Source: Minutocellus sp. GHC0000111
Lineage: Eukaryota
NCBI GenBank assembly: GCA_977018835.1
Contig: OZ361258.1
Location: forward strand, 2,790,001-2,854,000
DNA: 64,000 nucleotides
Direction: 5' to 3'
Shown piece by piece: positions 1 through 49,627 of this stretch (position 1 is its first letter; each line of letters starts with the position of its first letter). The position numbers and the translations under genes were made by a program. A model generated the notes under the pieces. The model was not told the DNA's origin. It ran no database searches and saw nothing but the letters and a program-made list of their open reading frames with translations.

Positions 1-3000
1 GGCTCTGGCGTTGGTGGTTTTGCGGCCCTCGCATCGTCTCCAGCTCCTGCTGGTGCTGGTGCAGGGAGCAAGACATCGTCGACTGGCTTTGGTTTTGGCT
101 TTGGCGGTAGCAGTAGTAGTAGTACTAGTGGTGTCAGCGGTGTTGATTCTTCGATGGTGAAGCCATTGTTTGGATCGGTGCCTGCGGCTGCTCCTGCGCC
201 TACGTCTGAAGCCGCACCTGCTCCTGCGCCGGCTGGTGCATCTGCGACTGACAATGGTACCGACAACATTAGGGAAGACGATGTTGGAGTATCAGGAACG
301 GCGAAGCCTTTGTCGGATACTGATGAGGCGAGGACAGCCACGGCCGTCTTTGATTCTCTCGATGAGGGCAAGAAGGGCAGGGTACCGGCCTCAATGTTCG
401 AGGCGCTCACCGACGAGCTTGGCGAAGGCTTCCACGGGGACGAGTTCGACAAGCAACTTGCCATCATCGACCCTGAAGGGACGGGCTTCATCGCTCGGTC
501 CTCCTTTGCGGCATGGTACTCGGAGCTTGTCCTCGGAGGCTCTGGAGATGGCGAAGATGGTTCCGATGCTGGATCGCTCGACACTGAGGAGCGAGAAGAA
601 CGTGAGGAGGAGCGTCAGAATGCTGACGAGGCCTTTACTGCCGCGGCTGGTGAGGATGTGGACGTCCTTGCCGTGTCAGCCTTCAGTGATCTGATTGAGT
701 CTATGGGCACGACTTACTGCGAAGAGGAGCACCGACGTACCATCAAGAAAATTAGCAGCGAGGATGGCGCTACGATATCTCGTGATGCTTTCGTCGCTTG
801 GTATTTGGACTGGCTCTTTGGAGGCGATGAGTCCGATATCGAGAGCGACGAAGGTGAAGATGACGAGGATGGTGATGCCGACGGTGCTGGTGGTACTGGC
901 GGTGCATCGTCATCGGAGGGATGGGGAGGTACCTTTGGCGCTGCCGAGGAGGGTTCCTGGAAGTGCGATGCTTGTATGGTCCGGAACAAGGCTTCAGATG
1001 CCAAATGTGCTGCCTGTGAGACTGCACGCCCTGGATACGAAGCCAAGGCTGCGGAGGTATCGAGCGGCGATGGCTCGGCCACTGCGTCGTCAGCGGCGGC
1101 GTTTGCATCTGAGATAGGAACTGGTGGATTTTCATTCGGTGGCGGTGGTAGTAGCAGCAGTACCGCGGCACCTGCTCCTGCCTCATCCTCATCGATTGGA
1201 GCCGGCGGCTTCAGCTTTGGTGGCAATACTACTACTAGCAGCGCAGCGACACCAGCTCCGGCCTTTGGCGCATCATCGGCGGTCTCGTCCTCATCTTCAG
1301 GCGGAGGCTTCGCGTTTGGTGCGCCCGCCACTGCAGCACCAGCTCCACCTTCGGGAGTAGGAGGAGGAGGCTTTACGTTCGGCGTCAAGCCTGCCGTCAC
1401 ATCTGCTGCATCTGACAAAGTGAATCCTGACGCCACCGCACCCTCAGCTGCCCAACAAGAGAATCCGGCAGCGGAAAAAGAAGACGACGAGGTCTACTCA
1501 GACGACCTCATCGGCACCGCCGACACAGCACGGACGGCCTACGATGAGATCGCTGAGGGTGCAACATCTCTTCCCAGCAGCAGATTCGACGATCTGCTCG
1601 ATGTGGTCGGCGAGGGCTTCTATGGCGACGAGAAGGACGAGCAGCTTGCCATCATCGATCCGAGCAGCACCGGCACCATTACCAAGAAGGCCTTTGTTTC
1701 GTGGTACGTCAACTTCGTCACCGCTGCAGATGCCGACGATGACGAGTCGGCCTCGTTAGATACCGCCGACCGCGAAGAACGCGAGGAGGAAAGGCAGAAC
1801 GCCGACCAGGCCTTTACTGACACCGTCGGCGAGGGCATCGATGTTATTGACTCGGCCGCCTTTGGAGATCTGATTGAGTCGATGGGCACTACATACTGTG
1901 AGGAAGAGCATCGCCGCACCATCAAGAAGATTAGCGGTGCGGATGGGAAGATTTCCCGCGATGCATTCATTGCATGGTATCTTGACTGGTTGTTTGGGGG
2001 TGATGAGTCCGACATCGAGACGGATGAGGAGGACGAAGCCGGCGAAGAAGAAGAGAGACCGGCCACATCGGGTGGAGAAGGGTGGGGCAATGCATTCGGC
2101 GTCGAGGAAGGATCCTGGAAGTGCGATGCTTGCATGGTGCGTAACAAGGCCGGTGATACCAAGTGTGCTGCTTGTGAGACTGTCCGCCCTGGATACGAAG
2201 ACAAGCAAGAGGAGAGCAGCGATAGTGCTGCCGCGAGTGGGTCTGCCATCGGCGCCGGTGGTTTTAGCTTCGGCGGAGGGGCGAGTACTGCTGCTGCGGC
2301 CGCTCCTTCGATTGGATCGGGAGGATTCAGCTTTGGTGGGGCTACTACATCGGCACCAGCACCAGCACCGGCACCTGTAACTGCTGTATCGTCTGGCGGA
2401 GGCTTCAGCTTTGGTGCCAAGCCATCATCAACTGCAACCAGCTCTACTACCGGAGGATTCAGTTTTGGTGCACCGCCTGCGCCTGCGGGCAAGGTACCGG
2501 ACAAGGCCGAGAAGAAGAAAGACGAGAAGGCAGTATCATCCTCAAGTGCAAGTTTCCCCCCTCTTGCGACCAAGGCACCGACGCCCTTCTCGGCAACTGC
2601 GAAGGCGAGTGCAGCAGCTCCAGCAGCCACCGCAAAGCCCGCCGCTTCAAGTAGCGCCTTCCCACCGATGAGTACTGCAGCTCCTAAGAATCCATTCTCG
2701 GCAACTGCGAAGGCCCCTGTTGCTGCGGCTCCAGCACCAGCTCCAGCACCAGCGGCCAAGCCTGCTGCTTCGAGTAGCGCATTCCCGCCGATGAGTACTG
2801 CAGCTCCTAAGAATCCGTTCTCCGCTCCCTCGAAGCCTCCAGCACCAGCACCAGCGGCCAAGTCCGCTGCTTCGAGTAGTGCATTCCCGCCGATGAGTAC
2901 TGCAGCTCCTAAGAATCCGTTCGCGTCGGTAAAGCTGACGTCGAGCTCTGCTACAATCGGCAGCACGAGTACGAGCGGTGGCTTTTCGTTTGGCACCCCA

Positions 3001-6000
3001 AGCACTCTCGGCGGTGGCAGCGGGGCGCCGGCAACGACCAAGGGCGGCTTTTCGTTTGGATCGACGGGAAGTGCGACCTTTGGCAGTCCACCGGCCAAGT
3101 TGGAGGCCCCCAAGGCCACCGAGCAGGAGAAGTCAGCGCCGATATTTGGCTCTGGGTCGAAGGCTCCGGTCTTTGGAAGCGGCTCTGGCGTTGGTGGTTT
3201 TGCGGCCCTCGCATCGTCTCCAGCTCCTGCTGGTGCTGGTGCAGGGAGCAAGACATAGTCGACTGGCTTTGGTTTTGGCTTTGGCGGTAGCAGTAGTAGT
3301 AGTACTAGTGGTGTCAGCGGTGTTGATTCTTCGATGGTGAAGCCATTGTTTGGATCGGTGCCTGCGGCTGCTCCTGCGCCTACGTCTGAAGCCGCACCTG
3401 CTCCTGCGCCGGCTGGTGCATCTGCGACTGACAATGGTACCGACAACATTAGGGAAGACGATGTTGGAGTATCAGGAACGGCGAAGCCTTTGTCGGATAC
3501 TGATGAGGCGAGGACAGCCACGGCCGTCTTTGATTCTCTCGATGAGGGCAAGAAGGGCAGGGTACCGGCCTCAATGTTCGAGGCGCTCACCGACGAGCTT
3601 GGCGAAGGCTTCCACGGGGACGAGTTCGACAAGCAACTTGCCATCATCGACCCTGAAGGGACGGGCTTCATCGCTCGGTCCTCCTTTGCGGCATGGTACT
3701 CGGAGCTTGTCCTCGGAGGCTCTGGAGATGGCGAAGATGGTTCCGATGCTGGATCGCTCGACACTGAGGAGCGAGAAGAACGTGAGGAGGAGCGTCAGAA
3801 TGCTGACGAGGCCTTTACTGCCGCGGCTGGTGAGGATGTGGACGTCCTTGCCGTGTCAGCCTTCAGTGATCTGATTGAGTCTATGGGCACGACTTACTGC
3901 GAAGAGGAGCACCGACGTACCATCAAGAAAATTAGCAGCGAGGATGGCGCTACGATATCTCGTGATGCTTTCGTCGCTTGGTATTTGGACTGGCTCTTTG
4001 GAGGCGATGAGTCCGATATCGAGAGCGACGAAGGTGAAGATGACGAGGATGGTGATGCCGACGGTGCTGGTGGTACTGGCGGTGCATCGTCATCGGAGGG
4101 ATGGGGAGGTACCTTTGGCGCTGCCGAGGAGGGTTCCTGGAAGTGCGATGCTTGTATGGTCCGGAACAAGGCTTCAGATGCCAAATGTGCTGCCTGTGAG
4201 ACTGCACGCCCTGGATACGAAGCCAAGGCTGCGGAGGTATCGAGCGGCGATGGCTCGGCCACTGCGTCGTCAGCGGCGGCGTTTGCATCTGAGATAGGAA
4301 CTGGTGGATTTTCATTCGGTGGCGGTGGTAGTAGCAGCAGTACCGCGGCACCTGCTCCTGCCTCATCCTCATCGATTGGAGCCGGCGGCTTCAGCTTTGG
4401 TGGCAATACTACTACTAGCAGCGCAGCGACACCAGCTCCGGCCTTTGGCGCATCATCGGCGGTCTCGTCCTCATCTTCAGGCGGAGGCTTCGCGTTTGGT
4501 GCGCCCGCCACTGCAGCACCAGCTCCACCTTCGGGAGTAGGAGGAGGAGGCTTTACGTTCGGCGTCAAGCCTGCCGTCACATCTGCTGCATCTGACAAAG
4601 TGAATCCTGACGCCACCGCACCCTCAGCTGCCCAACAAGAGAATCCGGCAGCGGAAAAAGAAGACGACGAGGTCTACTCAGACGACCTCATCGGCACCGC
4701 CGACACAGCACGGACGGCCTACGATGAGATCGCTGAGGGTGCAACATCTCTTCCCAGCAGCAGATTCGACGATCTGCTCGATGTGGTCGGCGAGGGCTTC
4801 TATGGCGACGAGAAGGACGAGCAGCTTGCCATCATCGATCCGAGCAGCACCGGCACCATTACCAAGAAGGCCTTTGTTTCGTGGTACGTCAACTTCGTCA
4901 CCGCTGCAGATGCCGACGATGACGAGTCGGCCTCGTTAGATACCGCCGACCGCGAAGAACGCGAGGAGGAAAGGCAGAACGCCGACCAGGCCTTTACTGA
5001 CACCGTCGGCGAGGGCATCGATGTTATTGACTCGGCCGCCTTTGGAGATCTGATTGAGTCGATGGGCACTACATACTGTGAGGAAGAGCATCGCCGCACC
5101 ATCAAGAAGATTAGCGGTGCGGATGGGAAGATTTCCCGCGATGCATTCATTGCATGGTATCTTGACTGGTTGTTTGGGGGTGATGAGTCCGACATCGAGA
5201 CGGATGAGGAGGACGAAGCCGGCGAAGAAGAAGAGAGACCGGCCACATCGGGTGGAGAAGGGTGGGGCAATGCATTCGGCGTCGAGGAAGGATCCTGGAA
5301 GTGCGATGCTTGCATGGTGCGTAACAAGGCCGGTGATACCAAGTGTGCTGCTTGTGAGACTGTCCGCCCTGGATACGAAGACAAGCAAGAGGAGAGCAGC
5401 GATAGTGCTGCCGCGAGTGGGTCTGCCATCGGCGCCGGTGGTTTTAGCTTCGGCGGAGGGGCGAGTACTGCTGCTGCGGCCGCTCCTTCGATTGGATCGG
5501 GAGGATTCAGCTTTGGTGGGGCTACTACATCGGCACCAGCACCAGCACCGGCACCTGTAACTGCTGTATCGTCTGGCGGAGGCTTCAGCTTTGGTGCCAA
5601 GCCATCATCAACTGCAACCAGCTCTACTACCGGAGGATTCAGTTTTGGTGCACCGCCTGCGCCTGCGGGCAAGGTACCGGACAAGGCCGAGAAGAAGAAA
5701 GACGAGAAGGCAGTATCATCCTCAAGTGCAAGTTTCCCCCCTCTTGCGACCAAGGCACCGACGCCCTTCTCGGCAACTGCGAAGGCGAGTGCAGCAGCTC
5801 CAGCAGCCACCGCAAAGCCCGCCGCTTCAAGTAGCGCCTTCCCACCGATGAGTACTGCAGCTCCTAAGAATCCATTCTCGGCAACTGCGAAGGCCCCTGT
5901 TGCTGCGGCTCCAGCACCAGCTCCAGCACCAGCGGCCAAGCCTGCTGCTTCGAGTAGCGCATTCCCGCCGATGAGTACTGCAGCTCCTAAGAATCCGTTC

Positions 6001-15000: not shown

Positions 15001-18000
15001 CGCGAAGAACGCGAGGAGGAAAGGCAGAACGCCGACCAGGCCTTTACTGACACCGTCGGCGAGGGCATCGATGTTATTGACTCGGCCGCCTTTGGAGATC
15101 TGATTGAGTCGATGGGCACTACATACTGTGAGGAAGAGCATCGCCGCACCATCAAGAAGATTAGCGGTGCGGATGGGAAGATTTCCCGCGATGCATTCAT
15201 TGCATGGTATCTTGACTGGTTGTTTGGGGGTGATGAGTCCGACATCGAGACGGATGAGGAGGACGAAGCCGGCGAAGAAGAAGAGAGACCGGCCACATCG
15301 GGTGGAGAAGGGTGGGGCAATGCATTCGGCGTCGAGGAAGGATCCTGGAAGTGCGATGCTTGCATGGTGCGTAACAAGGCCGGTGATACCAAGTGTGCTG
15401 CTTGTGAGACTGTCCGCCCTGGATACGAAGACAAGCAAGAGGAGAGCAGCGATAGTGCTGCCGCGAGTGGGTCTGCCATCGGCGCCGGTGGTTTTAGCTT
15501 GGCGGAGGGGCGAGTACTGCTGCTGCGGCCGCTCCTTCGATTGGATCGGGAGGATTCAGCTTTGGTGGGGCTACTACATCGGCACCAGCACCAGCACCGG
15601 CACCTGTAACCGCTGTATCGTCTGGCGGAGGCTTCAGCTTTGGTGCCAAGCCATCATCAACTGCAACCAGCTCTACTACCGGAGGATTCAGTTTTGGTGC
15701 ACCGCCTGCGCCTGCGGGCAAGGTACCGGACAAGGCCGAGAAGAAGAAAGACGAGAAGGCAGTATCATCCTCAAGTGCAAGTTTCCCCCCTCTTGCGACC
15801 AAGGCACCGACGCCCTTCTCGGCAACTGCGAAGGCGAGTGCAGCAGCTCCAGCAGCCACCGCAAAGCCCGCCGCTTCAAGTAGCGCCTTCCCACCGATGA
15901 GTACTGCAGCTCCTAAGAATCCATTCTCGGCAACTGCGAAGGCCCCTGTTGCTGCGGCTCCAGCACCAGCTCCAGCACCAGCGGCCAAGCCTGCTGCTTC
16001 GAGTAGCGCATTCCCGCCGATGAGTACTGCAGCTCCTAAGAATCCGTTCTCCGCTCCCTCGAAGCCTCCAGCACCAGCACCAGCGGCCAAGCCTGCTGCT
16101 TCGAGTAGCGCATTCCCGCCGATGAGTACTGCAGCTCCTAAGAATCCGTTCTCCGCTCCCTCGAAGCCTCCAGCACCAGCACCAGCGGCCAAGCCTGCTG
16201 CTTCGAGTAGCGCATTCCCGCCGATGAGTACTGCAGCTCCTAAGAATCCGTTCTCCGCTCCCTCGAAGCCTCCAGCACCAGCACCAGCGGCCAAGTCCGC
16301 TGCTTCGAGTAGTGCATTCCCGCCGATGAGTACTGCAGCTCCTAAGAATCCGTTCGCGTCGGTAAAGCTGACGTCGAGCTCTGCTACAATCGGCAGCACG
16401 AGTACGAGCGGTGGCTTTTCGTTTGGCACCCCAAGCACTCTCGGCGGTGGCAGCGGGGCGCCGGCAACGACCAAGGGCGGCTCTTCGTTTGGATCGACGG
16501 GAAGTGCGACCTTTGGCAGTCCACCGGCCAAGTTGGAGGCCCCCAAGGCCACCGAGCAGGAGAAGTCAGCGCCGATATTTGGCTCTGGGTCGAAGGCTCC
16601 GGTCTTTGGAAGCGGCTCTGGCGTTGGTGGTTTTGCGGCCCTCGCATCGTCTCCAGCTCCTGCTGGTGCTGGTGCAGGGAGCAAGACATCGTCGACTGGC
16701 TTTGGTTTTGGCTTTGGCGGTAGCAGTAGTAGTAGTACTAGTGGTGTCAGCGGTGTTGATTCTTCGATGGTGAAGCCATTGTTTGGATCGGTGCCTGCGG
16801 CTGCTCCTGCGCCTACGTCTGAAGCCGCACCTGCTCCTGCGCCGGCTGGTGCATCTGCGACTGACAATGGTACCGACAACATTAGGGAAGACGATGTTGG
16901 AGTATCAGGAACGGCGAAGCCTTTGTCGGATACTGATGAGGCGAGGACAGCCACGGCCGTCTTTGATTCTCTCGATGAGGGCAAGAAGGGCAGGGTACCG
17001 GCCTCAATGTTCGAGGCGCTCACCGACGAGCTTGGCGAAGGCTTCCACGGGGACGAGTTCGACAAGCAACTTGCCATCATCGACCCTGAAGGGACGGGCT
17101 TCATCGCTCGGTCCTCCTTTGCGGCATGGTACTCGGAGCTTGTCCTCGGAGGCTCTGGAGATGGCGAAGATGGTTCCGATGCTGGATCGCTCGACACTGA
17201 GGAGCGAGAAGAACGTGAGGAGGAGCGTCAGAATGCTGACGAGGCCTTTACTGCCGCGGCTGGTGAGGATGTGGACGTCCTTGCCGTGTCAGCCTTCAGT
17301 GATCTGATTGAGTCTATGGGCACGACTTACTGCGAAGAGGAGCACCGACGTACCATCAAGAAAATTAGCAGCGAGGATGGCGCTACGATATCTCGTGATG
17401 CTTTCGTCGCTTGGTATTTGGACTGGCTCTTTGGAGGCGATGAGTCCGATATCGAGAGCGACGAAGGTGAAGATGACGAGGATGGTGATGCCGACGGTGC
17501 TGGTGGTACTGGCGGTGCATCGTCATCGGAGGGATGGGGAGGTACCTTTGGCGCTGCCGAGGAGGGTTCCTGGAAGTGCGATGCTTGTATGGTCCGGAAC
17601 AAGGCTTCAGATGCCAAATGTGCTGCCTGTGAGACTGCACGCCCTGGATACGAAGCCAAGGCTGCGGAGGTATCGAGCGGCGATGGCTCGGCCACTGCGT
17701 CGTCAGCGGCGGCGTTTGCATCTGAGATAGGAACTGGTGGATTTTCATTCGGTGGCGGTGGTAGTAGCAGCAGTACCGCGGCACCTGCTCCTGCCTCATC
17801 CTCATCGATTGGAGCCGGCGGCTTCAGCTTTGGTGGCAATACTACTACTAGCAGCGCAGCGACACCAGCTCCGGCCTTTGGCGCATCATCGGCGGTCTCG
17901 TCCTCATCTTCAGGCGGAGGCTTCGCGTTTGGTGCGCCCGCCACTGCAGCACCAGCTCCACCTTCGGGAGTAGGAGGAGGAGGCTTTACGTTCGGCGTCA

Positions 18001-30000: not shown

Positions 30001-33000
30001 TAAAGCTGACGTCGAGCTCTGCTACAATCGGCAGCACGAGTACGAGCGGTGGCTTTTCGTTTGGCACCCCAAGCACTCTCGGCGGTGGCAGCGGGGCGCC
30101 GGCAACGACCAAGGGCGGCTTTTCGTTTGGATCGACGGGAAGTGCGACCTTTGGCAGTCCACCGGCCAAGTTGGAGGCCCCCAAGGCCACCGAGCAGGAG
30201 AAGTCAGCGCCGATATTTGGCTCTGGGTCGAAGGCTCCGGTCTTTGGAAGCGGCTCTGGCGTTGGTGGTTTTGCGGCCCTCGCATCGTCTCCAGCTCCTG
30301 CTGGTGCTGGTGCAGGGAGCAAGACATCGTCGACTGGCTTTGGTTTTGGCTTTGGCGGTAGCAGTAGTAGTAGTACTAGTGGTGTCAGCGGTGTTGATTC
30401 TTCGATGGTGAAGCCATTGTTTGGATCGGTGCCTGCGGCTGCTCCTGCGCCTACGTCTGAAGCCGCACCTGCTCCTGCGCCGGCTGGTGCATCTGCGACT
30501 GACAATGGTACCGACAACATTAGGGAAGACGATGTTGGAGTATCAGGAACGGCGAAGCCTTTGTCGGATACTGATGAGGCGAGGACAGCCACGGCCGTCT
30601 TTGATTCTCTCGATGAGGGCAAGAAGGGCAGGGTACCGGCCTCAATGTTCGAGGCGCTCACCGACGAGCTTGGCGAAGGCTTCCACGGGGACGAGTTCGA
30701 CAAGCAACTTGCCATCATCGACCCTGAAGGGACGGGCTTCATCGCTCGGTCCTCCTTTGCGGCATGGTACTCGGAGCTTGTCCTCGGAGGCTCTGGAGAT
30801 GGCGAAGATGGTTCCGATGCTGGATCGCTCGACACTGAGGAGCGAGAAGAACGTGAGGAGGAGCGTCAGAATGCTGACGAGGCCTTTACTGCCGCGGCTG
30901 GTGAGGATGTGGACGTCCTTGCCGTGTCAGCCTTCAGTGATCTGATTGAGTCTATGGGCACGACTTACTGCGAAGAGGAGCACCGACGTACCATCAAGAA
31001 AATTAGCAGCGAGGATGGCGCTACGATATCTCGTGATGCTTTCGTCGCTTGGTATTTGGACTGGCTCTTTGGAGGCGATGAGTCCGATATCGAGAGCGAC
31101 GAAGGTGAAGATGACGAGGATGGTGATGCCGACGGTGCTGGTGGTACTGGCGGTGCATCGTCATCGGAGGGATGGGGAGGTACCTTTGGCGCTGCCGAGG
31201 AGGGTTCCTGGAAGTGCGATGCTTGTATGGTCCGGAACAAGGCTTCAGATGCCAAGTGTGCTGCCTGTGAGACTGCACGCCCTGGATACGAAGCCAAGGC
31301 TGCGGAGGTATCGAGCGGCGATGGCTCGGCCACTGCGTCGTCAGCGGCGGCGTTTGCATCTGAGATAGGAACTGGTGGATTTTCATTCGGTGGCGGTGGT
31401 AGTAGCAGCAGTACCGCGGCACCTGCTCCTGCCTCATCCTCATCGATTGGAGCCGGCGGCTTCAGCTTTGGTGGCAATACTACTACTAGCAGCGCAGCGA
31501 CACCAGCTCCGGCCTTTGGCGCATCATCGGCGGTCTCGTCCTCATCTTCAGGCGGAGGCTTCGCGTTTGGTGCGCCCGCCACTGCAGCACCAGCTCCACC
31601 TTCGGGAGTAGGAGGAGGAGGCTTTACGTTCGGCGTCAAGCCTGCCGTCACATCTGCTGCATCTGACAAAGTGAATCCTGACGCCACCGCACCCTCAGCT
31701 GCCCAACAAGAGAATCCGGCAGCGGAAAAAGAAGACGACGAGGTCTACTCAGACGACCTCATCGGCACCGCCGACACAGCACGGACGGCCTACGATGAGA
31801 TCGCTGAGGGTGCAACATCTCTTCCCAGCAGCAGATTCGACGATCTGCTCGATGTGGTCGGCGAGGGCTTCTATGGCGACGAGAAGGACGAGCAGCTTGC
31901 CATCATCGATCCGAGCAGCACCGGCACCATTACCAAGAAGGCCTTTGTTTCGTGGTACGTCAACTTCGTCACCGCTGCAGATGCCGACGATGACGAGTCG
32001 GCCTCGTTAGACACCGCCGACCGCGAAGAACGCGAGGAGGAAAGGCAGAACGCCGACCAGGCCTTTACTGACACCGTCGGCGAGGGCATCGATGTTATTG
32101 ACTCGGCCGCCTTTGGAGATCTGATTGAGTCGATGGGCACTACATACTGTGAGGAAGAGCATCGCCGCACCATCAAGAAGATTAGCGGTGCGGATGGGAA
32201 GATTTCCCGCGATGCATTCATTGCATGGTATCTTGACTGGTTGTTTGGGGGTGATGAGTCCGACATCGAGACGGATGAGGAGGACGAAGCCGGCGAAGAA
32301 GAAGAGAGACCGGCCACATCGGGTGGAGAAGGGTGGGGCAATGCATTCGGCGTCGAGGAAGGATCCTGGAAGTGCGATGCTTGCATGGTGCGTAACAAGG
32401 CCGGTGATACCAAGTGTGCTGCTTGTGAGACTGTCCGCCCTGGATACGAAGACAAGCAAGAGGAGAGCAGCGATAGTGCTGCCGCGAGTGGGTCTGCCAT
32501 CGGCGCCGGTGGTTTTAGCTTCGGCGGAGGGGCGAGTACTGCTGCTGCGGCCGCTCCTTCGATTGGATCGGGAGGATTCAGCTTTGGTGGGGCTACTACA
32601 TCGGCACCAGCACCAGCACCGGCACCTGTAACTGCTGTATCGTCTGGCGGAGGCTTCAGCTTTGGTGCCAAGCCATCATCAACTGCAACCAGCTCTACTA
32701 CCGGAGGATTCAGTTTTGGTGCACCGCCTGCGCCTGCGGGCAAGGTACCGGACAAGGCCGAGAAGAAGAAAGACGAGAAGGCAGTATCATCCTCAAGTGC
32801 AAGTTTCCCCCCTCTTGCGACCAAGGCACCGACGCCCTTCTCGGCAACTGCGAAGGCGAGTGCAGCAGCTCCAGCAGCCACCGCAAAGCCCGCCGCTTCA
32901 AGTAGCGCCTTCCCACCGATGAGTACTGCAGCTCCTAAGAATCCATTCTCGGCAACTGCGAAGGCCCCTGTTGCTGCGGCTCCAGCACCAGCTCCAGCAC

Positions 33001-36000
33001 CAGCGGCCAAGCCTGCTGCTTCGAGTAGCGCATTCCCGCCGATGAGTACTGCAGCTCCTAAGAATCCGTTCTCCGCTCCCTCGAAGCCTCCAGCACCAGC
33101 ACCAGCGGCCAAGCCTGCTGCTTCGAGTAGCGCATTCCCGCCGATGAGTACTGCAGCTCCTAAGAATCCGTTCTCCGCTCCCTCGAAGCCTCCAGCACCA
33201 GCACCAGCGGCCAAGCCTGCTGCTTCGAGTAGCGCATTCCCGCCGATGAGTACTGCAGCTCCTAAGAATCCGTTCTCCGCTCCCTCGAAGCCTCCAGCAC
33301 CAGCACCAGCGGCCAAGTCCGCTGCTTCGAGTAGTGCATTCCCGCCGATGAGTACTGCAGCTCCTAAGAATCCGTTCGCGTCGGTAAAGCTGACGTCGAG
33401 CTCTGCTACAATCGGCAGCACGAGTACGAGCGGTGGCTTTTCGTTTGGCACCCCAAGCACTCTCGGCGGTGGCAGCGGGGCGCCGGCAACGACCAAGGGC
33501 GGCTTTTCGTTTGGATCGACGGGAAGTGCGACCTTTGGCAGTCCACCGGCCAAGTTGGAGGCCCCCAAGGCCACCGAGCAGGAGAAGTCAGCGCCGATAT
33601 TTGGCTCTGGGTCGAAGGCTCCGGTCTTTGGAAGCGGCTCTGGCGTTGGTGGTTTTGCGGCCCTCGCATCGTCTCCAGCTCCTGCTGGTGCTGGTGCAGG
33701 GAGCAAGACATCGTCGACTGGCTTTGGTTTTGGCTTTGGCGGTAGCAGTAGTAGTAGTACTAGTGGTGTCAGCGGTGTTGATTCTTCGATGGTGAAGCCA
33801 TTGTTTGGATCGGTGCCTGCGGCTGCTCCTGCGCCTACGTCTGAAGCCGCACCTGCTCCTGCGCCGGCTGGTGCATCTGCGACTGACAATGGTACCGACA
33901 ACATTAGGGAAGACGATGTTGGAGTGTCAGGAACGGCGAAGCCTTTGTCGGATACTGATGAGGCGAGGACAGCCACGGCCGTCTTTGATTCTCTCGATGA
34001 GGGCAAGAAGGGCAGGGTACCGGCCTCAATGTTCGAGGCGCTCACCGACGAGCTTGGCGAAGGCTTCCACGGGGACGAGTTCGACAAGCAACTTGCCATC
34101 ATCGACCCTGAAGGGACGGGCTTCATCGCTCGGTCCTCCTTTGCGGCATGGTACTCGGAGCTTGTCCTCGGAGGCTCTGGAGATGGCGAAGATGGTTCCG
34201 ATGCTGGATCGCTCGACACTGAGGAGCGAGAAGAACGTGAGGAGGAGCGTCAGAATGCTGACGAGGCCTTTACTGCCGCGGCTGGTGAGGATGTGGACGT
34301 CCTTGCCGTGTCAGCCTTCAGTGATCTGATTGAGTCTATGGGCACGACTTACTGCGAAGAGGAGCACCGACGTACCATCAAGAAAATTAGCAGCGAGGAT
34401 GGCGCTACGATATCTCGTGATGCTTTCGTCGCTTGGTATTTGGACTGGCTCTTTGGAGGCGATGAGTCCGATATCGAGAGCGACGAAGGTGAAGATGACG
34501 AGGATGGTGATGCCGACGGTGCTGGTGGTACTGGCGGTGCATCGTCATCGGAGGGATGGGGAGGTACCTTTGGCGCTGCCGAGGAGGGTTCCTGGAAGTG
34601 CGATGCTTGTATGGTCCGGAACAAGGCTTCAGATGCCAAGTGTGCTGCCTGTGAGACTGCACGCCCTGGATACGAAGCCAAGGCTGCGGAGGTATCGAGC
34701 GGCGATGGCTCGGCCACTGCGTCGTCAGCGGCGGCGTTTGCATCTGAGATAGGAACTGGTGGATTTTCATTCGGTGGCGGTGGTAGTAGCAGCAGTACCG
34801 CGGCACCTGCTCCTGCCTCATCCTCATCGATTGGAGCCGGCGGCTTCAGCTTTGGTGGCAATACTACTACTAGCAGCGCAGCGACACCAGCTCCGGCCTT
34901 TGGCGCATCATCGGCGGTCTCGTCCTCATCTTCAGGCGGAGGCTTCGCGTTTGGTGCGCCCGCCACTGCAGCACCAGCTCCACCTTCGGGAGTAGGAGGA
35001 GGAGGCTTTACGTTCGGCGTCAAGCCTGCCGTCACATCTGCTGCATCTGACAAAGTGAATCCTGACGCCACCGCACCCTCAGCTGCCCAACAAGAGAATC
35101 CGGCAGCGGAAAAAGAAGACGACGAGGTCTACTCAGACGACCTCATCGGCACCGCCGACACAGCACGGACGGCCTACGATGAGATCGCTGAGGGTGCAAC
35201 ATCTCTTCCCAGCAGCAGATTCGACGATCTGCTCGATGTGGTCGGCGAGGGCTTCTATGGCGACGAGAAGGACGAGCAGCTTGCCATCATCGATCCGAGC
35301 AGCACCGGCACCATTACCAAGAAGGCCTTTGTTTCGTGGTACGTCAACTTCGTCACCGCTGCAGATGCCGACGATGACGAGTCGGCCTCGTTAGACACCG
35401 CCGACCGCGAAGAACGCGAGGAGGAAAGGCAGAACGCCGACCAGGCCTTTACTGACACCGTCGGCGAGGGCATCGATGTTATTGACTCGGCCGCCTTTGG
35501 AGATCTGATTGAGTCGATGGGCACTACATACTGTGAGGAAGAGCATCGCCGCACCATCAAGAAGATTAGCGGTGCGGATGGGAAGATTTCCCGCGATGCA
35601 TTCATTGCATGGTATCTTGACTGGTTGTTTGGGGGTGATGAGTCCGACATCGAGACGGATGAGGAGGACGAAGCCGGCGAAGAAGAAGAGAGACCGGCCA
35701 CATCGGGTGGAGAAGGGTGGGGCAATGCATTCGGCGTCGAGGAAGGATCCTGGAAGTGCGATGCTTGCATGGTGCGTAACAAGGCCGGTGATACCAAGTG
35801 TGCTGCTTGTGAGACTGTCCGCCCTGGATACGAAGACAAGCAAGAGGAGAGCAGCGATAGTGCTGCCGCGAGTGGGTCTGCCATCGGCGCCGGTGGTTTT
35901 AGCTTCGGCGGAGGGGCGAGTACTGCTGCTGCGGCCGCTCCTTCGATTGGATCGGGAGGATTCAGCTTTGGTGGGGCTACTACATCGGCACCAGCACCAG

Positions 36001-39000
36001 CACCGGCACCTGTAACTGCTGTATCGTCTGGCGGAGGCTTCAGCTTTGGTGCCAAGCCATCATCAACTGCAACCAGCTCTACTACCGGAGGATTCAGTTT
36101 TGGTGCACCGCCTGCGCCTGCGGGCAAGGTACCGGACAAGGCCGAGAAGAAGAAAGACGAGAAGGCAGTATCATCCTCAAGTGCAAGTTTCCCCCCTCTT
36201 GCGACCAAGGCACCGACGCCCTTCTCGGCAACTGCGAAGGCGAGTGCAGCAGCTCCAGCAGCCACCGCAAAGCCCGCCGCTTCAAGTAGCGCCTTCCCAC
36301 CGATGAGTACTGCAGCTCCTAAGAATCCATTCTCGGCAACTGCGAAGGCCCCTGTTGCTGCGGCTCCAGCACCAGCTCCAGCACCAGCGGCCAAGCCTGC
36401 TGCTTCGAGTAGCGCATTCCCGCCGATGAGTACTGCAGCTCCTAAGAATCCGTTCTCCGCTCCCTCGAAGCCTCCAGCACCAGCACCAGCGGCCAAGCCT
36501 GCTGCTTCGAGTAGCGCATTCCCGCCGATGAGTACTGCAGCTCCTAAGAATCCGTTCTCCGCTCCCTCGAAGCCTCCAGCACCAGCACCAGCGGCCAAGC
36601 CTGCTGCTTCGAGTAGCGCATTCCCGCCGATGAGTACTGCAGCTCCTAAGAATCCGTTCTCCGCTCCCTCGAAGCCTCCAGCACCAGCACCAGCGGCCAA
36701 GTCCGCTGCTTCGAGTAGTGCATTCCCGCCGATGAGTACTGCAGCTCCTAAGAATCCGTTCGCGTCGGTAAAGCTGACGTCGAGCTCTGCTACAATCGGC
36801 AGCACGAGTACGAGCGGTGGCTTTTCGTTTGGCACCCCAAGCACTCTCGGCGGTGGCAGCGGGGCGCCGGCAACGACCAAGGGCGGCTTTTCGTTTGGAT
36901 CGACGGGAAGTGCGACCTTTGGCAGTCCACCGGCCAAGTTGGAGGCCCCCAAGGCCACCGAGCAGGAGAAGTCAGCGCCGATATTTGGCTCTGGGTCGAA
37001 GGCTCCGGTCTTTGGAAGCGGCTCTGGCGTTGGTGGTTTTGCGGCCCTCGCATCGTCTCCAGCTCCTGCTGGTGCTGGTGCAGGGAGCAAGACATCGTCG
37101 ACTGGCTTTGGTTTTGGCTTTGGCGGTAGCAGTAGTAGTAGTACTAGTGGTGTCAGCGGTGTTGATTCTTCGATGGTGAAGCCATTGTTTGGATCGGTGC
37201 CTGCGGCTGCTCCTGCGCCTACGTCTGAAGCCGCACCTGCTCCTGCGCCGGCTGGTGCATCTGCGACTGACAATGGTACCGACAACATTAGGGAAGACGA
37301 TGTTGGAGTATCAGGAACGGCGAAGCCTTTGTCGGATACTGATGAGGCGAGGACAGCCACGGCCGTCTTTGATTCTCTCGATGAGGGCAAGAAGGGCAGG
37401 GTACCGGCCTCAATGTTCGAGGCGCTCACCGACGAGCTTGGCGAAGGCTTCCACGGGGACGAGTTCGACAAGCAACTTGCCATCATCGACCCTGAAGGGA
37501 CGGGCTTCATCGCTCGGTCCTCCTTTGCGGCATGGTACTCGGAGCTTGTCCTCGGAGGCTCTGGAGATGGCGAAGATGGTTCCGATGCTGGATCGCTCGA
37601 CACTGAGGAGCGAGAAGAACGTGAGGAGGAGCGTCAGAATGCTGACGAGGCCTTTACTGCCGCGGCTGGTGAGGATGTGGACGTCCTTGCCGTGTCAGCC
37701 TTCAGTGATCTGATTGAGTCTATGGGCACGACTTACTGCGAAGAGGAGCACCGACGTACCATCAAGAAAATTAGCAGCGAGGATGGCGCTACGATATCTC
37801 GTGATGCTTTCGTCGCTTGGTATTTGGACTGGCTCTTTGGAGGCGATGAGTCCGATATCGAGAGCGACGAAGGTGAAGATGACGAGGATGGTGATGCCGA
37901 CGGTGCTGGTGGTACTGGCGGTGCATCGTCATCGGAGGGATGGGGAGGTACCTTTGGCGCTGCCGAGGAGGGTTCCTGGAAGTGCGATGCTTGTATGGTC
38001 CGGAACAAGGCTTCAGATGCCAAGTGTGCTGCCTGTGAGACTGCACGCCCTGGATACGAAGCCAAGGCTGCGGAGGTATCGAGCGGCGATGGCTCGGCCA
38101 CTGCGTCGTCAGCGGCGGCGTTTGCATCTGAGATAGGAACTGGTGGATTTTCATTCGGTGGCGGTGGTAGTAGCAGCAGTACCGCGGCACCTGCTCCTGC
38201 CTCATCCTCATCGATTGGAGCCGGCGGCTTCAGCTTTGGTGGCAATACTACTACTAGCAGCGCAGCGACACCAGCTCCGGCCTTTGGCGCATCATCGGCG
38301 GTCTCGTCCTCATCTTCAGGCGGAGGCTTCGCGTTTGGTGCGCCCGCCACTGCAGCACCAGCTCCACCTTCGGGAGTAGGAGGAGGAGGCTTTACGTTCG
38401 GCGTCAAGCCTGCCGTCACATCTGCTGCATCTGACAAAGTGAATCCTGACGCCACCGCACCCTCAGCTGCCCAACAAGAGAATCCGGCAGCGGAAAAAGA
38501 AGACGACGAGGTCTACTCAGACGACCTCATCGGCACCGCCGACACAGCACGGACGGCCTACGATGAGATCGCTGAGGGTGCAACATCTCTTCCCAGCAGC
38601 AGATTCGACGATCTGCTCGATGTGGTCGGCGAGGGCTTCTATGGCGACGAGAAGGACGAGCAGCTTGCCATCATCGATCCGAGCAGCACCGGCACCATTA
38701 CCAAGAAGGCCTTTGTTTCGTGGTACGTCAACTTCGTCACCGCTGCAGATGCCGACGATGACGAGTCGGCCTCGTTAGACACCGCCGACCGCGAAGAACG
38801 CGAGGAGGAAAGGCAGAACGCCGACCAGGCCTTTACTGACACCGTCGGCGAGGGCATCGATGTTATTGACTCGGCCGCCTTTGGAGATCTGATTGAGTCG
38901 ATGGGCACTACATACTGTGAGGAAGAGCATCGCCGCACCATCAAGAAGATTAGCGGTGCGGATGGGAAGATTTCCCGCGATGCATTCATTGCATGGTATC

Positions 39001-42000
39001 TTGACTGGTTGTTTGGGGGTGATGAGTCCGACATCGAGACGGATGAGGAGGACGAAGCCGGCGAAGAAGAAGAGAGACCGGCCACATCGGGTGGAGAAGG
39101 GTGGGGCAATGCATTCGGCGTCGAGGAAGGATCCTGGAAGTGCGATGCTTGCATGGTGCGTAACAAGGCCGGTGATACCAAGTGTGCTGCTTGTGAGACT
39201 GTCCGCCCTGGATACGAAGACAAGCAAGAGGAGAGCAGCGATAGTGCTGCCGCGAGTGGGTCTGCCATCGGCGCCGGTGGTTTTAGCTTCGGCGGAGGGG
39301 CGAGTACTGCTGCTGCGGCCGCTCCTTCGATTGGATCGGGAGGATTCAGCTTTGGTGGGGCTACTACATCGGCACCAGCACCAGCACCGGCACCTGTAAC
39401 TGCTGTATCGTCTGGCGGAGGCTTCAGCTTTGGTGCCAAGCCATCATCAACTGCAACCAGCTCTACTACCGGAGGATTCAGTTTTGGTGCACCGCCTGCG
39501 CCTGCGGGCAAGGTACCGGACAAGGCCGAGAAGAAGAAAGACGAGAAGGCAGTATCATCCTCAAGTGCAAGTTTCCCCCCTCTTGCGACCAAGGCACCGA
39601 CGCCCTTCTCGGCAACTGCGAAGGCGAGTGCAGCAGCTCCAGCAGCCACCGCAAAGCCCGCCGCTTCAAGTAGCGCCTTCCCACCGATGAGTACTGCAGC
39701 TCCTAAGAATCCATTCTCGGCAACTGCGAAGGCCCCTGTTGCTGCGGCTCCAGCACCAGCTCCAGCACCAGCGGCCAAGCCTGCTGCTTCGAGTAGCGCA
39801 TTCCCGCCGATGAGTACTGCAGCTCCTAAGAATCCGTTCTCCGCTCCCTCGAAGCCTCCAGCACCAGCACCAGCGGCCAAGCCTGCTGCTTCGAGTAGCG
39901 CATTCCCGCCGATGAGTACTGCAGCTCCTAAGAATCCGTTCTCCGCTCCCTCGAAGCCTCCAGCACCAGCACCAGCGGCCAAGCCTGCTGCTTCGAGTAG
40001 CGCATTCCCGCCGATGAGTACTGCAGCTCCTAAGAATCCGTTCTCCGCTCCCTCGAAGCCTCCAGCACCAGCACCAGCGGCCAAGTCCGCTGCTTCGAGT
40101 AGTGCATTCCCGCCGATGAGTACTGCAGCTCCTAAGAATCCGTTCGCGTCGGTAAAGCTGACGTCGAGCTCTGCTACAATCGGCAGCACGAGTACGAGCG
40201 GTGGCTTTTCGTTTGGCACCCCAAGCACTCTCGGCGGTGGCAGCGGGGCGCCGGCAACGACCAAGGGCGGCTTTTCGTTTGGATCGACGGGAAGTGCGAC
40301 CTTTGGCAGTCCACCGGCCAAGTTGGAGGCCCCCAAGGCCACCGAGCAGGAGAAGTCAGCGCCGATATTTGGCTCTGGGTCGAAGGCTCCGGTCTTTGGA
40401 AGCGGCTCTGGCGTTGGTGGTTTTGCGGCCCTCGCATCGTCTCCAGCTCCTGCTGGTGCTGGTGCAGGGAGCAAGACATCGTCGACTGGCTTTGGTTTTG
40501 GCTTTGGCGGTAGCAGTAGTAGTAGTACTAGTGGTGTCAGCGGTGTTGATTCTTCGATGGTGAAGCCATTGTTTGGATCGGTGCCTGCGGCTGCTCCTGC
40601 GCCTACGTCTGAAGCCGCACCTGCTCCTGCGCCGGCTGGTGCATCTGCGACTGACAATGGTACCGACAACATTAGGGAAGACGATGTTGGAGTGTCAGGA
40701 ACGGCGAAGCCTTTGTCGGATACTGATGAGGCGAGGACAGCCACGGCCGTCTTTGATTCTCTCGATGAGGGCAAGAAGGGCAGGGTACCGGCCTCAATGT
40801 TCGAGGCGCTCACCGACGAGCTTGGCGAAGGCTTCCACGGGGACGAGTTCGACAAGCAACTTGCCATCATCGACCCTGAAGGGACGGGCTTCATCGCTCG
40901 GTCCTCCTTTGCGGCATGGTACTCGGAGCTTGTCCTCGGAGGCTCTGGAGATGGCGAAGATGGTTCCGATGCTGGATCGCTCGACACTGAGGAGCGAGAA
41001 GAACGTGAGGAGGAGCGTCAGAATGCTGACGAGGCCTTTACTGCCGCGGCTGGTGAGGATGTGGACGTCCTTGCCGTGTCAGCCTTCAGTGATCTGATTG
41101 AGTCTATGGGCACGACTTACTGCGAAGAGGAGCACCGACGTACCATCAAGAAAATTAGCAGCGAGGATGGCGCTACGATATCTCGTGATGCTTTCGTCGC
41201 TTGGTATTTGGACTGGCTCTTTGGAGGCGATGAGTCCGATATCGAGAGCGACGAAGGTGAAGATGACGAGGATGGTGATGCCGACGGTGCTGGTGGTACT
41301 GGCGGTGCATCGTCATCGGAGGGATGGGGAGGTACCTTTGGCGCTGCCGAGGAGGGTTCCTGGAAGTGCGATGCTTGTATGGTCCGGAACAAGGCTTCAG
41401 ATGCCAAATGTGCTGCCTGTGAGACTGCACGCCCTGGATACGAAGCCAAGGCTGCGGAGGTATCGAGCGGCGATGGCTCGGCCACTGCGTCGTCAGCGGC
41501 GGCGTTTGCATCTGAGATAGGAACTGGTGGATTTTCATTCGGTGGCGGTGGTAGTAGCAGCAGTACCGCGGCACCTGCTCCTGCCTCATCCTCATCGATT
41601 GGAGCCGGCGGCTTCAGCTTTGGTGGCAATACTACTACTAGCAGCGCAGCGACACCAGCTCCGGCCTTTGGCGCATCATCGGCGGTCTCGTCCTCATCTT
41701 CAGGCGGAGGCTTCGCGTTTGGTGCGCCCGCCACTGCAGCACCAGCTCCACCTTCGGGAGTAGGAGGAGGAGGCTTTACGTTCGGCGTCAAGCCTGCCGT
41801 CACATCTGCTGCATCTGACAAAGTGAATCCTGACGCCACCGCACCCTCAGCTGCCCAACAAGAGAATCCGGCAGCGGAAAAAGAAGACGACGAGGTCTAC
41901 TCAGACGACCTCATCGGCACCGCCGACACAGCACGGACGGCCTACGATGAGATCGCTGAGGGTGCAACATCTCTTCCCAGCAGCAGATTCGACGATCTGC

Positions 42001-45000
42001 TCGATGTGGTCGGCGAGGGCTTCTATGGCGACGAGAAGGACGAGCAGCTTGCCATCATCGATCCGAGCAGCACCGGCACCATTACCAAGAAGGCCTTTGT
42101 TTCGTGGTACGTCAACTTCGTCACCGCTGCAGATGCCGACGATGACGAGTCGGCCTCGTTAGACACCGCCGACCGCGAAGAACGCGAGGAGGAAAGGCAG
42201 AACGCCGACCAGGCCTTTACTGACACCGTCGGCGAGGGCATCGATGTTATTGACTCGGCCGCCTTTGGAGATCTGATTGAGTCGATGGGCACTACATACT
42301 GTGAGGAAGAGCATCGCCGCACCATCAAGAAGATTAGCGGTGCGGATGGGAAGATTTCCCGCGATGCATTCATTGCATGGTATCTTGACTGGTTGTTTGG
42401 GGGTGATGAGTCCGACATCGAGACGGATGAGGAGGACGAAGCCGGCGAAGAAGAAGAGAGACCGGCCACATCGGGTGGAGAAGGGTGGGGCAATGCATTC
42501 GGCGTCGAGGAAGGATCCTGGAAGTGCGATGCTTGCATGGTGCGTAACAAGGCCGGTGATACCAAGTGTGCTGCTTGTGAGACTGTCCGCCCTGGATACG
42601 AAGACAAGCAAGAGGAGAGCAGCGATAGTGCTGCCGCGAGTGGGTCTGCCATCGGCGCCGGTGGTTTTAGCTTCGGCGGAGGGGCGAGTACTGCTGCTGC
42701 GGCCGCTCCTTCGATTGGATCGGGAGGATTCAGCTTTGGTGGGGCTACTACATCGGCACCAGCACCAGCACCGGCACCTGTAACTGCTGTATCGTCTGGC
42801 GGAGGCTTCAGCTTTGGTGCCAAGCCATCATCAACTGCAACCAGCTCTACTACCGGAGGATTCAGTTTTGGTGCACCGCCTGCGCCTGCGGGCAAGGTAC
42901 CGGACAAGGCCGAGAAGAAGAAAGACGAGAAGGCAGTATCATCCTCAAGTGCAAGTTTCCCCCCTCTTGCGACCAAGGCACCGACGCCCTTCTCGGCAAC
43001 TGCGAAGGCGAGTGCAGCAGCTCCAGCAGCCACCGCAAAGCCCGCCGCTTCAAGTAGCGCCTTCCCACCGATGAGTACTGCAGCTCCTAAGAATCCATTC
43101 TCGGCAACTGCGAAGGCCCCTGTTGCTGTGGCTCCAGCACCAGCTCCAGCACCAGCGGCCAAGCCTGCTGCTTCGAGTAGCGCATTCCCGCCGATGAGTA
43201 CTGCAGCTCCTAAGAATCCGTTCTCCGCTCCCTCGAAGCCTCCAGCACCAGCACCAGCGGCCAAGCCTGCTGCTTCGAGTAGCGCATTCCCGCCGATGAG
43301 TACTGCAGCTCCTAAGAATCCGTTCTCCGCTCCCTCGAAGCCTCCAGCACCAGCACCAGCGGCCAAGTCCGCTGCTTCGAGTAGTGCATTCCCGCCGATG
43401 AGTACTGCAGCTCCTAAGAATCCGTTCGCGTCGGTAAAGCTGACGTCGAGCTCTGCTACAATCGGCAGCACGAGTACGAGCGGTGGCTTTTCGTTTGGCA
43501 CCCCAAGCACTCTCGGCGGTGGCAGCGGGGCGCCGGCAACGACCAAGGGCGGCTTTTCGTTTGGATCGACGGGAAGTGCGACCTTTGGCAGTCCACCGGC
43601 CAAGTTGGAGGCCCCCAAGGCCACCGAGCAGGAGAAGTCAGCGCCGATATTTGGCTCTGGGTCGAAGGCTCCGGTCTTTGGAAGCGGCTCTGGCGTTGGT
43701 GGTTTTGCGGCCCTCGCATCGTCTCCAGCTCCTGCTGGTGCTGGTGCAGGGAGCAAGACATCGTCGACTGGCTTTGGTTTTGGCTTTGGCGGTAGCAGTA
43801 GTAGTAGTACTAGTGGTGTCAGCGGTGTTGATTCTTCGATGGTGAAGCCATTGTTTGGATCGGTGCCTGCGGCTGCTCCTGCGCCTACGTCTGAAGCCGC
43901 ACCTGCTCCTGCGCCGGCTGGTGCATCTGCGACTGACAATGGTACCGACAACATTAGGGAAGACGATGTTGGAGTATCAGGAACGGCGAAGCCTTTGTCG
44001 GATACTGATGAGGCGAGGACAGCCACGGCCGTCTTTGATTCTCTCGATGAGGGCAAGAAGGGCAGGGTACCGGCCTCAATGTTCGAGGCGCTCACCGACG
44101 AGCTTGGCGAAGGCTTCCACGGGGACGAGTTCGACAAGCAACTTGCCATCATCGACCCTGAAGGGACGGGCTTCATCGCTCGGTCCTCCTTTGCGGCATG
44201 GTACTCGGAGCTTGTCCTCGGAGGCTCTGGAGATGGCGAAGATGGTTCCGATGCTGGATCGCTCGACACTGAGGAGCGAGAAGAACGTGAGGAGGAGCGT
44301 CAGAATGCTGACGAGGCCTTTACTGCCGCGGCTGGTGAGGATGTGGACGTCCTTGCCGTGTCAGCCTTCAGTGATCTGATTGAGTCTATGGGCACGACTT
44401 ACTGCGAAGAGGAGCACCGACGTACCATCAAGAAAATTAGCAGCGAGGATGGCGCTACGATATCTCGTGATGCTTTCGTCGCTTGGTATTTGGACTGGCT
44501 CTTTGGAGGCGATGAGTCCGATATCGAGAGCGACGAAGGTGAAGATGACGAGGATGGTGATGCCGACGGTGCTGGTGGTACTGGCGGTGCATCGTCATCG
44601 GAGGGATGGGGAGGTACCTTTGGCGCTGCCGAGGAGGGTTCCTGGAAGTGCGATGCTTGTATGGTCCGGAACAAGGCTTCAGATGCCAAATGTGCTGCCT
44701 GTGAGACTGCACGCCCTGGATACGAAGCCAAGGCTGCGGAGGTATCGAGCGGCGATGGCTCGGCCACTGCGTCGTCAGCGGCGGCGTTTGCATCTGAGAT
44801 AGGAACTGGTGGATTTTCATTCGGTGGCGGTGGTAGTAGCAGCAGTACCGCGGCACCTGCTCCTGCCTCATCCTCATCGATTGGAGCCGGCGGCTTCAGC
44901 TTTGGTGGCAATACTACTACTAGCAGCGCAGCGACACCAGCTCCGGCCTTTGGCGCATCATCGGCGGTCTCGTCCTCATCTTCAGGCGGAGGCTTCGCGT

Positions 45001-49100: not shown

Positions 49101-49330
49101 GTGCCATTCAAGTCAGGCACGTTCACAATGGCCCGCTGCCGACCAAGAGAGCGACAGAACTGGGTTTCGTTTGTCCAGGGGTAGCGAATGGGACATGAAC
49201 GCGAGCCGATATTCGTTGGTCCCCAGGGAAAAGATTCGAGATCGGCAGTTGAACTGGAGGCCGATGTCGTTCCAGATTTCGCAAAATGAAGCAATAACAA
49301 GAGAACAGCGTTCCAATGGGTATCACCCAT
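46112..49330 (-). pseudogene. DUF6067/GH123-like glycoside hydrolase-related protein with signal peptide; in-frame TAG at 48131-48133 and 3' end truncated at the array
   Basis: ORFs 48131..49465 and 46112..47998 are in the same frame, joined by 44 sense codons (WLNS*TGLDEGTITRPYTPI...). Motifs LSRLAWLNS, HQSNRLNPYINWPF, KIYYTVHELTNH, GLYYDG, PFGSFGEML, NRWRGMLFGM and IAIASW recall bacterial DUF6067 proteins. Probable ATG at 49330 (MGDTHWNAVLLLLLHFA). Confidence 0.65.
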
Positions 49331-49627
49331 GGTTGACCAGGCAGATATGTTGACGATCTTGACTTGCTTTGCTTGGGATTGACCAGGCAGATATCGTGCA
49401 TGTTGACTTGCTTTGCTGCTGACTTGGGACGGGGCCCGGTGGTGGTATCTTGTGTCAGATTGCAAGATGGCGTGACATAAAAAAGAAGGTCAATCTTTGT
49501 TAGCAAATTGCACGCGTAAAATCATGTGACACTTTCGTGCGCACGTGACCATGCGAACGCAAACACAATTCGACATTTCGAACTTCTCGACTGCTCCAAC
49601 CTTTCCTTCAGCTCGCCCTTCAAGAGA

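Follow-up and report, generated by a model that had tools for sequence, protein, structure and literature searches.

The question raised by this locus is what a tandem array of coding repeats, filling most of a 64,000-nucleotide stretch of Minutocellus sp. GHC0000111 (GenBank assembly GCA_977018835.1, contig OZ361258.1, positions 2,790,001 to 2,854,000 of the forward strand; the whole stretch is called the window here), encodes: a giant nucleoporin, a shorter gene inflated by assembly, or a satellite that is losing its frame. We favour, with modest confidence and on predicted features of the sequence, a recent in-frame expansion in the middle of a gene. The product of an intact allele would be a giant nucleoporin, predicted to serve at the nuclear pore as a docking platform for transport receptors and Ran, much like animal Nup358. 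An earlier note on this DNA, made from its letters alone, had already called the product nucleoporin-like, a character that the sequence supports.

The array is a head-to-tail macrosatellite on the + strand (1..46127) that begins upstream of the window and has no spacers anywhere along it. Anchor matches placed the unit starts (all +) at 121, 3301, 6583, 10069, 13351, 16734 and 20118 for units 1–7 and at 23502, 26988, 30372, 33756, 37140, 40524 and 43806 for units 8–14, giving 13 full units of 3,180–3,486 bp and a truncated unit 14 that ends at 46127. The spread in unit length comes from an inner variable number tandem repeat (VNTR) of 102 bp, present in 1.8–4.8 copies per unit; across the 3,176 columns outside the VNTR the 13 full units differ pairwise at 0–8 positions (< 0.3%), a likeness far beyond chance. 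After frame correction the array in the window holds 15,376 codons, 28 zinc fingers, 28 modules with an EF-hand body, 315 phenylalanine-glycine (FG) motifs and 162 FxFG motifs. The earlier note had reported near-identical units without spacers, about 15,370 codons, 28 RanBP2-type fingers and more than 100 FG motifs, all of which these counts bear out, and its stop-free stretch of 9,848 aa was recovered when the longest open reading frame (ORF) was counted from its first Met; it had overlooked a four-EF-hand body ahead of every finger and the mid-unit end of the array on a GH123 gene. Long antisense ORFs, of up to 826 aa, were read as by-products of the coding frame on the opposite strand.

Each unit is ordered as FG stretch, module A (four-EF-hand body plus finger), FG stretch, module B (likewise four-EF-hand body plus finger), FG stretch, a VNTR with the motif PPMS, and FG stretch. 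A representative unit (16734..20117, +) encodes 1,128 aa (111 kDa) with 23 FG and 12 FxFG motifs. Module A, exemplified in unit 2 (3481..4230, +), starts with an EF-hand body of two lobes whose loops are non-canonical; an acidic linker then leads to a RanBP2-type finger. Module B, exemplified in unit 1 (1516..2196, +), has the same design and is 91% identical to the module of P0024, a beta-propeller protein of Nup214 type. The zinc finger itself (2071..2202, +) carries an N-terminal extension with a Phe in register with the fingers of Nup358 and Nup153, and an example of the inner PPMS VNTR, with its 102-bp (34-aa) repeat, lies at 15966..16355 (+).

The EF body was modelled from a 50-row alignment with a predicted local distance difference test score (pLDDT) of 82.5; the leading Foldseek matches of the model were centrin, troponin C and calmodulin, and VIA gave Z 11.6 with a root mean square deviation of 1.7 over 71 residues. 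By this model the EF body is predicted to be a calmodulin/centrin-like, two-lobed fold of four EF-hands. Unlike canonical 12-residue Ca2+ loops, its loops have no Glu/Asp at position 12, which makes Ca2+ binding unlikely, and an EF-loop pattern, used with no positive control, had 0 matches in the unit and likewise 0 in each of 10 homologs; from the make-up of their loops the EF bodies are probably calcium-insensitive. The finger matches PF00641, and its best 15 PDB sequences are all from Nup358 or Nup153, with ubiquitin-binding NZFs at E 0.002 or worse, which agrees with the earlier assignment of the fingers to the Ran type rather than the ubiquitin-binding type. A Phe seven residues ahead of the finger's Trp aligns with the Phe of Nup358 and Nup153, and in the human fingers the equivalent residue occupies a pocket on Ran, according to one source (10.1101/2021.10.26.465790). 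An NCBIfam search of the unit added nothing.

The array had been described as fused in one frame. As assembled it comprises four + strand ORFs of 1,085, 4,116, 9,981 and 295 aa across three frames, broken by an in-frame stop private to unit 1 (3256..3258, +), a 1-base deletion private to unit 5 and outside any homopolymer (15499..15501, at about 15500, +), and a 1-base deletion in unit 14 within a short T run (45376..45378, at about 45377, +). The longest open stretch (15498..45443, +) has 9,981 codons, of which the 9,848 from the first Met would give 0.97 MDa. Behind the last deletion lies an out-of-frame terminal fragment (45378..46129, +), identical to the database protein P0206, with six substitutions absent from units 1–13; the frameshifted ending of unit 14 is also present in P0061, from a 426,212-bp ENA contig. 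At 46127..46128 (a strand-less junction) the array is cut mid-unit and directly abuts a GH123-like glycoside hydrolase gene on the minus strand (46128..49330, −), itself cut at the 3' end. The Pfam match of this gene runs only to position 922 of 969, and a stop at 48131-48133 splits it.

Part of the stretch is contained in 20 of the 21 sequencing runs listed; eight were compared, all as contigs, the depth of which is not a true copy number and cannot rank expression. X1 and X8 show another allele, in which 46128 is preceded by 1,216 different letters that attach to the unit at the place matching 43915, and in X9 the letters adjoining 46128 continue the GH123 frame; the end seen in the window is therefore a derived deletion, and this deletion took away the natural C-terminus of the gene together with the GH123 end. 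No long repeat that would explain the deletion was found at the junction, and an exact scan of the JGI metagenomes with the junction flank gave 0 matches. At 48133 the GH123 stop is replaced by a different base in all seven runs listed as covering the site, X2 and X3 included, so the window consensus may contain errors. The window allele as assembled is damaged, by a stop, two frameshifts and the lost C-terminus, and its product would be truncated if the breaks are real.

Two of the runs, X2 and X3, from two studies, are RNA, in that introns of the flank are spliced and some flank stretches are nearly empty; both match the window allele, with 1 other letter in 2.7 kb. The unit is covered by RNA contigs from both. 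In X3 a contig spans the join from module A to module B, which is found solely between repeats, and X2 joins letters of the gene's leader (described below) to module B, so that transcripts over unit junctions, to which the earlier note had looked as a check, are present in contigs of two studies; contigs cannot show one full-length mRNA. A GT..AG intron at 46571..46708 (+), antisense to GH123, is spliced in X2 and X3 (one side of the joint has 30 letters), and transcripts thus run off the array antisense to GH123. The X3 contig over the junction of the window reaches 30 letters into the array, one below the bridging bar.

The start of the gene was found through homologs. A search over proteins of 1,975–5,000 aa gave 59 matches among 7,987 candidates scored; the top homolog, P0001, is 100% identical, and the named homologs are from diatoms (45–49% identity) and an oomycete (34%), which points to a likely diatom gene. 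P0001 and its cluster mate P0060 open, from Met1, with the same 850-aa leader (one difference), made up of low-complexity sequence with FG, a small helical domain with the motif HNPxK that has no Pfam match, and a cyclophilin, after which module B, the PPMS VNTR, an FG stretch and module A follow and repeat. The cyclophilin (PF00160, E 6e-42, residues 396-582), a putative peptidyl-prolyl isomerase, has in the alignments the active-site residues R55, F60, Q63, A101, F113, L122 and H126 (CypA numbering); the W121 position is His, as in the cyclophilin 40 and RanBP2 rows, and the M61 position is Val. The HNPxK domain, of about 45 residues, also occurs in the C-terminal parts of P0002, P0004, P0006 and P0025 (in P0001 it lies at residues 323-370), in 1–6 copies per protein and with no Pfam match at E 0.05, and is a candidate anchor.

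A Nup214 propeller and a Nup358/Nup153 N-terminus had been named as things to look for upstream, and the leader is of neither kind. The propellers of P0006 and P0024 have no match in the window or P0060, the Pfam scan of P0001 shows no TPR or alpha-helical N-terminal domain, no oligomerisation element and no Nup153 N-terminus (for the latter no direct search with the Nup153 N-terminus was made), and RanBD domains and the SUMO E3 (IR1-M-IR2) region were not found in the window, P0001 or P0060, the 1.2-kb end of the other allele being too short for them. A RanBP2 protein, P0033, aligns to P0060 solely at the fingers and the cyclophilin.

P0060, encoded on a 1,176,857-bp ENA contig, is a single ORF of 7,717 aa (0.765 MDa) with the cyclophilin and 13 modules in 6.5 units. 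Its units carry variant blocks of their own: a 2-aa deletion is present in three of them and I573V in two. Compared with window unit 8, they show a single type of substitution and otherwise only in-frame indels. P0001, P0061, P0206 and the flank protein P0062 all lie on the 426,212-bp contig, and P0061, P0206 and P0062 equal stretches of the window letter for letter, the terminal frameshift and private changes included. P0061 starts within the long ORF of the window exactly where P0001 slips frame, so this contig would represent the same allele, assembled independently and with its repeats collapsed. An exact look-up of the long ORFs of the window in the protein collection left four of five absent, perhaps owing to start choice.

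Read depth bears on whether so many units exist. The median ratio of unit to flank depth is 7.0 in X1, 6.0 in X8 and 6.2 in X9 (two studies), runs that have no spliced joints, behave like DNA and carry an allele other than that of the window; in diverged relatives it is 3.5 in X15 and 2.6 in X17, the latter resting on short, low-depth, diverged contigs. X14 was unusable, with depth in 20 of 30 bins and a ratio of 3.5–33x depending on the flank chosen. The repeat array is real and multi-copy. Read depth had been proposed as the check on over-expansion, and it refutes 1–2 copies (6–7x) and leaves the 14 copies of the window without independent confirmation; with three frame breaks in addition, the single protein of more than 1.5 MDa once proposed is not supported. 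Alleles differ in unit variants and in array end, and copy figures across alleles and assemblies (14+, 6.5+, about 2.7, and 6–7 by depth) mix biology with assembly error. Loose contig ends at 43791, 43980, 44569, 44773 and 46057 (in X1, X8, X9, X3 or X17) suggest partial unit copies elsewhere in the genome, which may inflate the depth ratio.

It is quite possible, if short of probable, that assembly has inflated a real array, the true alleles having about 6–7 units (about 0.8 MDa), the window joining two alleles or over-expanding one, and the breaks being consensus errors. The depth of 6.0–7.0 in the three DNA-like runs, the 6.5 units of P0060, the disagreement of the assemblies on length, the GH123 stop contradicted in every covering run, and a variable site, 1641, that separates units 1–7 from units 8–13 all fit this account. 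On the other side, the DNA runs carry a different allele, with another array end and many single-nucleotide polymorphisms; in X3, which matches the window allele, RNA depth over the unit is 13x that of the junction contig (483 vs 36.6; the X2 equivalent is 7–8x), a weak measure. Moreover, 12 of the 13 full units are distinct; likeness is greater between neighbours (Mantel rho 0.44, p 0.003), and all four gametes occur at three pairs of sites, as in real turnover. An array of this smaller size would be compatible with the proposed Ran-docking function.

Variants within the units indicate how the frame has fared. Among those shared by several units, five of six are synonymous, against an expected share of 0.25–0.33 (p 0.005–0.017), and among private variants two of 11 are (Fisher p 0.03 for shared vs private; three alignment columns inside the VNTR were excluded). 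This suggests that the spread of variants went on under conservation of the frame and the protein, and that damage or errors were added recently. The private class, nine of its 11 members non-synonymous, may also be read as decay: the middle of a dispensable cyclophilin-FG paralog would have expanded without benefit and be transcribed while losing its frame, a Nup214-type paralog serving the pore. The stop, the two frameshifts, the lost C-terminus and the broken neighbour in the window allele are what such decay would leave, as are the scattered partial copies to which loose ends in X1, X8 and X9 point, and relatives have 1–3 modules only. We consider it unlikely, though with some weight, given that shared variants are mostly synonymous, that the P0060 units keep so close to window unit 8, that unit depth is raised in diverged relatives too, and that the gene family is old.

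That family was followed through its modules. The EF body search gave 254 representatives at E <= 0.001, the longest of the best 150 being 3,343 aa, and of 187 proteins with a module match none outside this gene exceeds four full modules. Most of the long module proteins combine a propeller, the module, PPMS repeats and a coiled coil, and P0025 carries the Nup159/214 propeller family PF16755. Cyclophilin and module occur together in seven other clusters (P0085-P0089, P0118, P0140, P0151, P0159, P0162 and P0221), of which P0162 is from the brown alga Sphacelaria, and P0090-P0092 have HNPxK, cyclophilin and FG without the module. This ochrophyte family of cyclophilin, HNPxK, EF-finger and FG proteins is apparently unnamed; in P0151 the cyclophilin is C-terminal, and P0221 adds leucine-rich repeats, which may be RanGAP-like. 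P0005 has eight half modules (two EF-hands plus finger) and P0008 has six, as separate smaller expansions. A scan of related loci found propeller matches in three of the five loci listed, with at most two modules and none with a cyclophilin; L002 (10001-12859) holds a propeller-type gene with two near-identical modules 2,157 bp apart, an internal duplication larger than in L003 or L004. In the open-access literature no description was found of a stramenopile cyclophilin/EF-hand/finger nucleoporin or of a nucleoporin macrosatellite.

In a module tree of 76 rows, labelled by motif, the 11 cyclophilin-borne modules need nine changes and form a single group in 0% of 200 bootstrap trees; a one-clade hypothesis for them was rejected by the approximately unbiased (AU) test (p 8e-5, 38 rows, leaving out the long row P0221 and loosely labelled rows). 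Module B groups with the 91% identical module of P0024 at 100/100. In a cyclophilin tree of 23 rows, eight diatom-like domains group (Shimodaira-Hasegawa-like approximate likelihood ratio test 91) and have an insertion in common, all 10 group weakly (42), and the eight of RanBP2 form a clade of their own (99). We infer that a cyclophilin-FG gene of long standing in ochrophytes has exchanged modules with Nup214 again and again, and that it probably converged on the Nup358 design.

Two other identities were weighed on the same comparisons. Most module homologs are propeller proteins, one of them (P0025) with PF16755, as would be expected if the gene were the organism's expanded Nup214/Nup159 ortholog; with a cyclophilin in the leader, no propeller found and a separate propeller protein, P0024, bearing the 91% identical module, this identity is very improbable. 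It is largely refuted by the cyclophilin leader and P0024. A giant FG and Ran-binding protein acting away from the pore, for instance as a cytoplasmic or mitotic scaffold or condensate of Ran and karyopherins, would be in keeping with the failure to find an anchoring propeller, TPR region or coiled coil and with the leucine-rich repeats of P0221; we hold it improbable, as FxFG, PPMS repeats, the module and HNPxK are all common to the Nup214-type protein of the same lineages.

Several observations weigh against the giant nucleoporin that we favour. Its 14 copies are matched by no DNA depth, the 426,212-bp contig probably holds, judging from P0001 and P0061, only about 2.7 units, and site 1641 splits the units just as two joined 7-unit alleles would. 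The window has three frame breaks, all runs compared being contigs in which the copies are collapsed, and P0060 itself ends in a frameshift with scrambled sequence behind it (P0109), so that in no assembly does an unbroken giant ORF run to a natural stop. The coiled coil of the Nup214-type proteins has, like their propeller, no match in the window or P0060 (the 1,216-letter end of the other allele lay outside this comparison), and a pore anchor was accordingly not recognised. Only six sites underlie the synonymous bias, two of them sharing one pattern, and a young array would be nearly lesion-free even without selection.

By the features tested, and as far as predicted domains go, the gene is assigned to neither the Nup358 nor the Nup214 family. 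With metazoan Nup358/RanBP2 it shares very large size, FG motifs, many Ran-type C4 fingers with a hydrophobic N-terminal extension, and a cyclophilin (finger and extension features as given in 10.1101/2021.10.26.465790). It differs in that the TPR/helical N-terminal domain, RanBD and SUMO E3 region were not found in it, in that its cyclophilin sits towards the N-terminus and does not fall in the RanBP2 clade, and in that its 13–28+ fingers, against eight, are spaced by EF-hand bodies in a non-metazoan. The stramenopile Nup214/Nup159-type proteins (P0002, P0004, P0006, P0024 and P0025) have in common with it the four-EF-hand body plus finger module, FxFG, PPMS and HNPxK, but start with a beta-propeller, contain a coiled coil and hold 1–4 full modules, where this gene has a cyclophilin leader and 13–28+; some of them are auto-labelled 'Nup153' in UniRef. 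The ochrophyte cyclophilin, EF/finger and FG proteins have the same domain set in 786–2,210 aa, with 1–3 modules and no kilobase-scale array. Units of D4Z4 and the TAF11-like arrays are separate genes or ORFs, and filaggrin and Olduvai arrays lie in frame inside one gene; the units here, in frame within one gene, are unlike the former and more like filaggrin or Olduvai. Kilobase tandem units are nonetheless common to this array and to D4Z4 and the TAF11-like arrays, coding macrosatellites of variable unit number (PMC3018141). Metazoan Nup153 likewise combines Ran-type fingers with FxFG repeats, but has four fingers in one block without cyclophilin or EF bodies and is placed on the nuclear side (10.1101/2021.10.26.465790). 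The trypanosome NUP149 is described, in PMC11825100, as a lineage-specific, mostly disordered FG nucleoporin of the cytoplasmic side with zinc fingers; it differs in having four fingers without clear homology to those of Nup358 and in being far smaller.

At higher positions than the GH123 gene the window holds a double ACT-domain gene (49586-50440, +), which resembles bacterial GcvR at E 1e-13, short of the cutoff, and has an intron spliced out near 49695-49809. A long membrane-protein ORF (50880-53909, +) with no clear Pfam match comes next; in RNA it lacks an in-frame intron of 108 bp near 52922-53030. These are followed by genes for a cytochrome c heme lyase (54122-55246, −), a VWA protein (55340-56752, +), a protein with repeated dirigent-like domains (56904-58538, −), an AAA-like protein (59297-61939, +) and an unassigned membrane protein (62092-63989, −).

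On the favoured reading, unequal crossing-over among the gene's own modules would have built the array and would still reshuffle it, the module having been taken from the Nup214-type paralog repeatedly and in different lineages. Each finger with its Phe extension would bind Ran(GDP), the FxFG stretches would bind karyopherins, and the cyclophilin may act on cargo or nucleoporins. The EF bodies would be structural, giving a mostly disordered chain of at least 0.8 MDa with rigid EF bodies behind the cyclophilin, and copy number (about 6–7 in one allele, up to 14+ here) would set the valence of Ran binding.

What this would mean is to be taken with the caution that three assemblies of the locus give three lengths. 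In-frame expansion, within a pore gene, of a block as long as 3.3 kb and with several domains would be a rare case. Nup358 is described, in 10.1101/2021.10.26.465790, as metazoan-specific; tentatively, and as one possibility, ochrophyte algae may have evolved a Nup358 of their own by borrowing Nup214 modules, here as a length-polymorphic filament of 0.8–1.6 MDa, several times human Nup358, with its Ran valence set by the repeats. The same source puts forward the idea that additional binding sites for Ran at the pore increase its local concentration, and an allele series of about 13 to 28+ fingers would be a natural test of it. If true, an algal protein of cyclophilin, Ran-type fingers and FG repeats, separately assembled, would mean that the same design arose twice, and orthologs with one to three modules make this convergence testable in ordinary diatom cultures.

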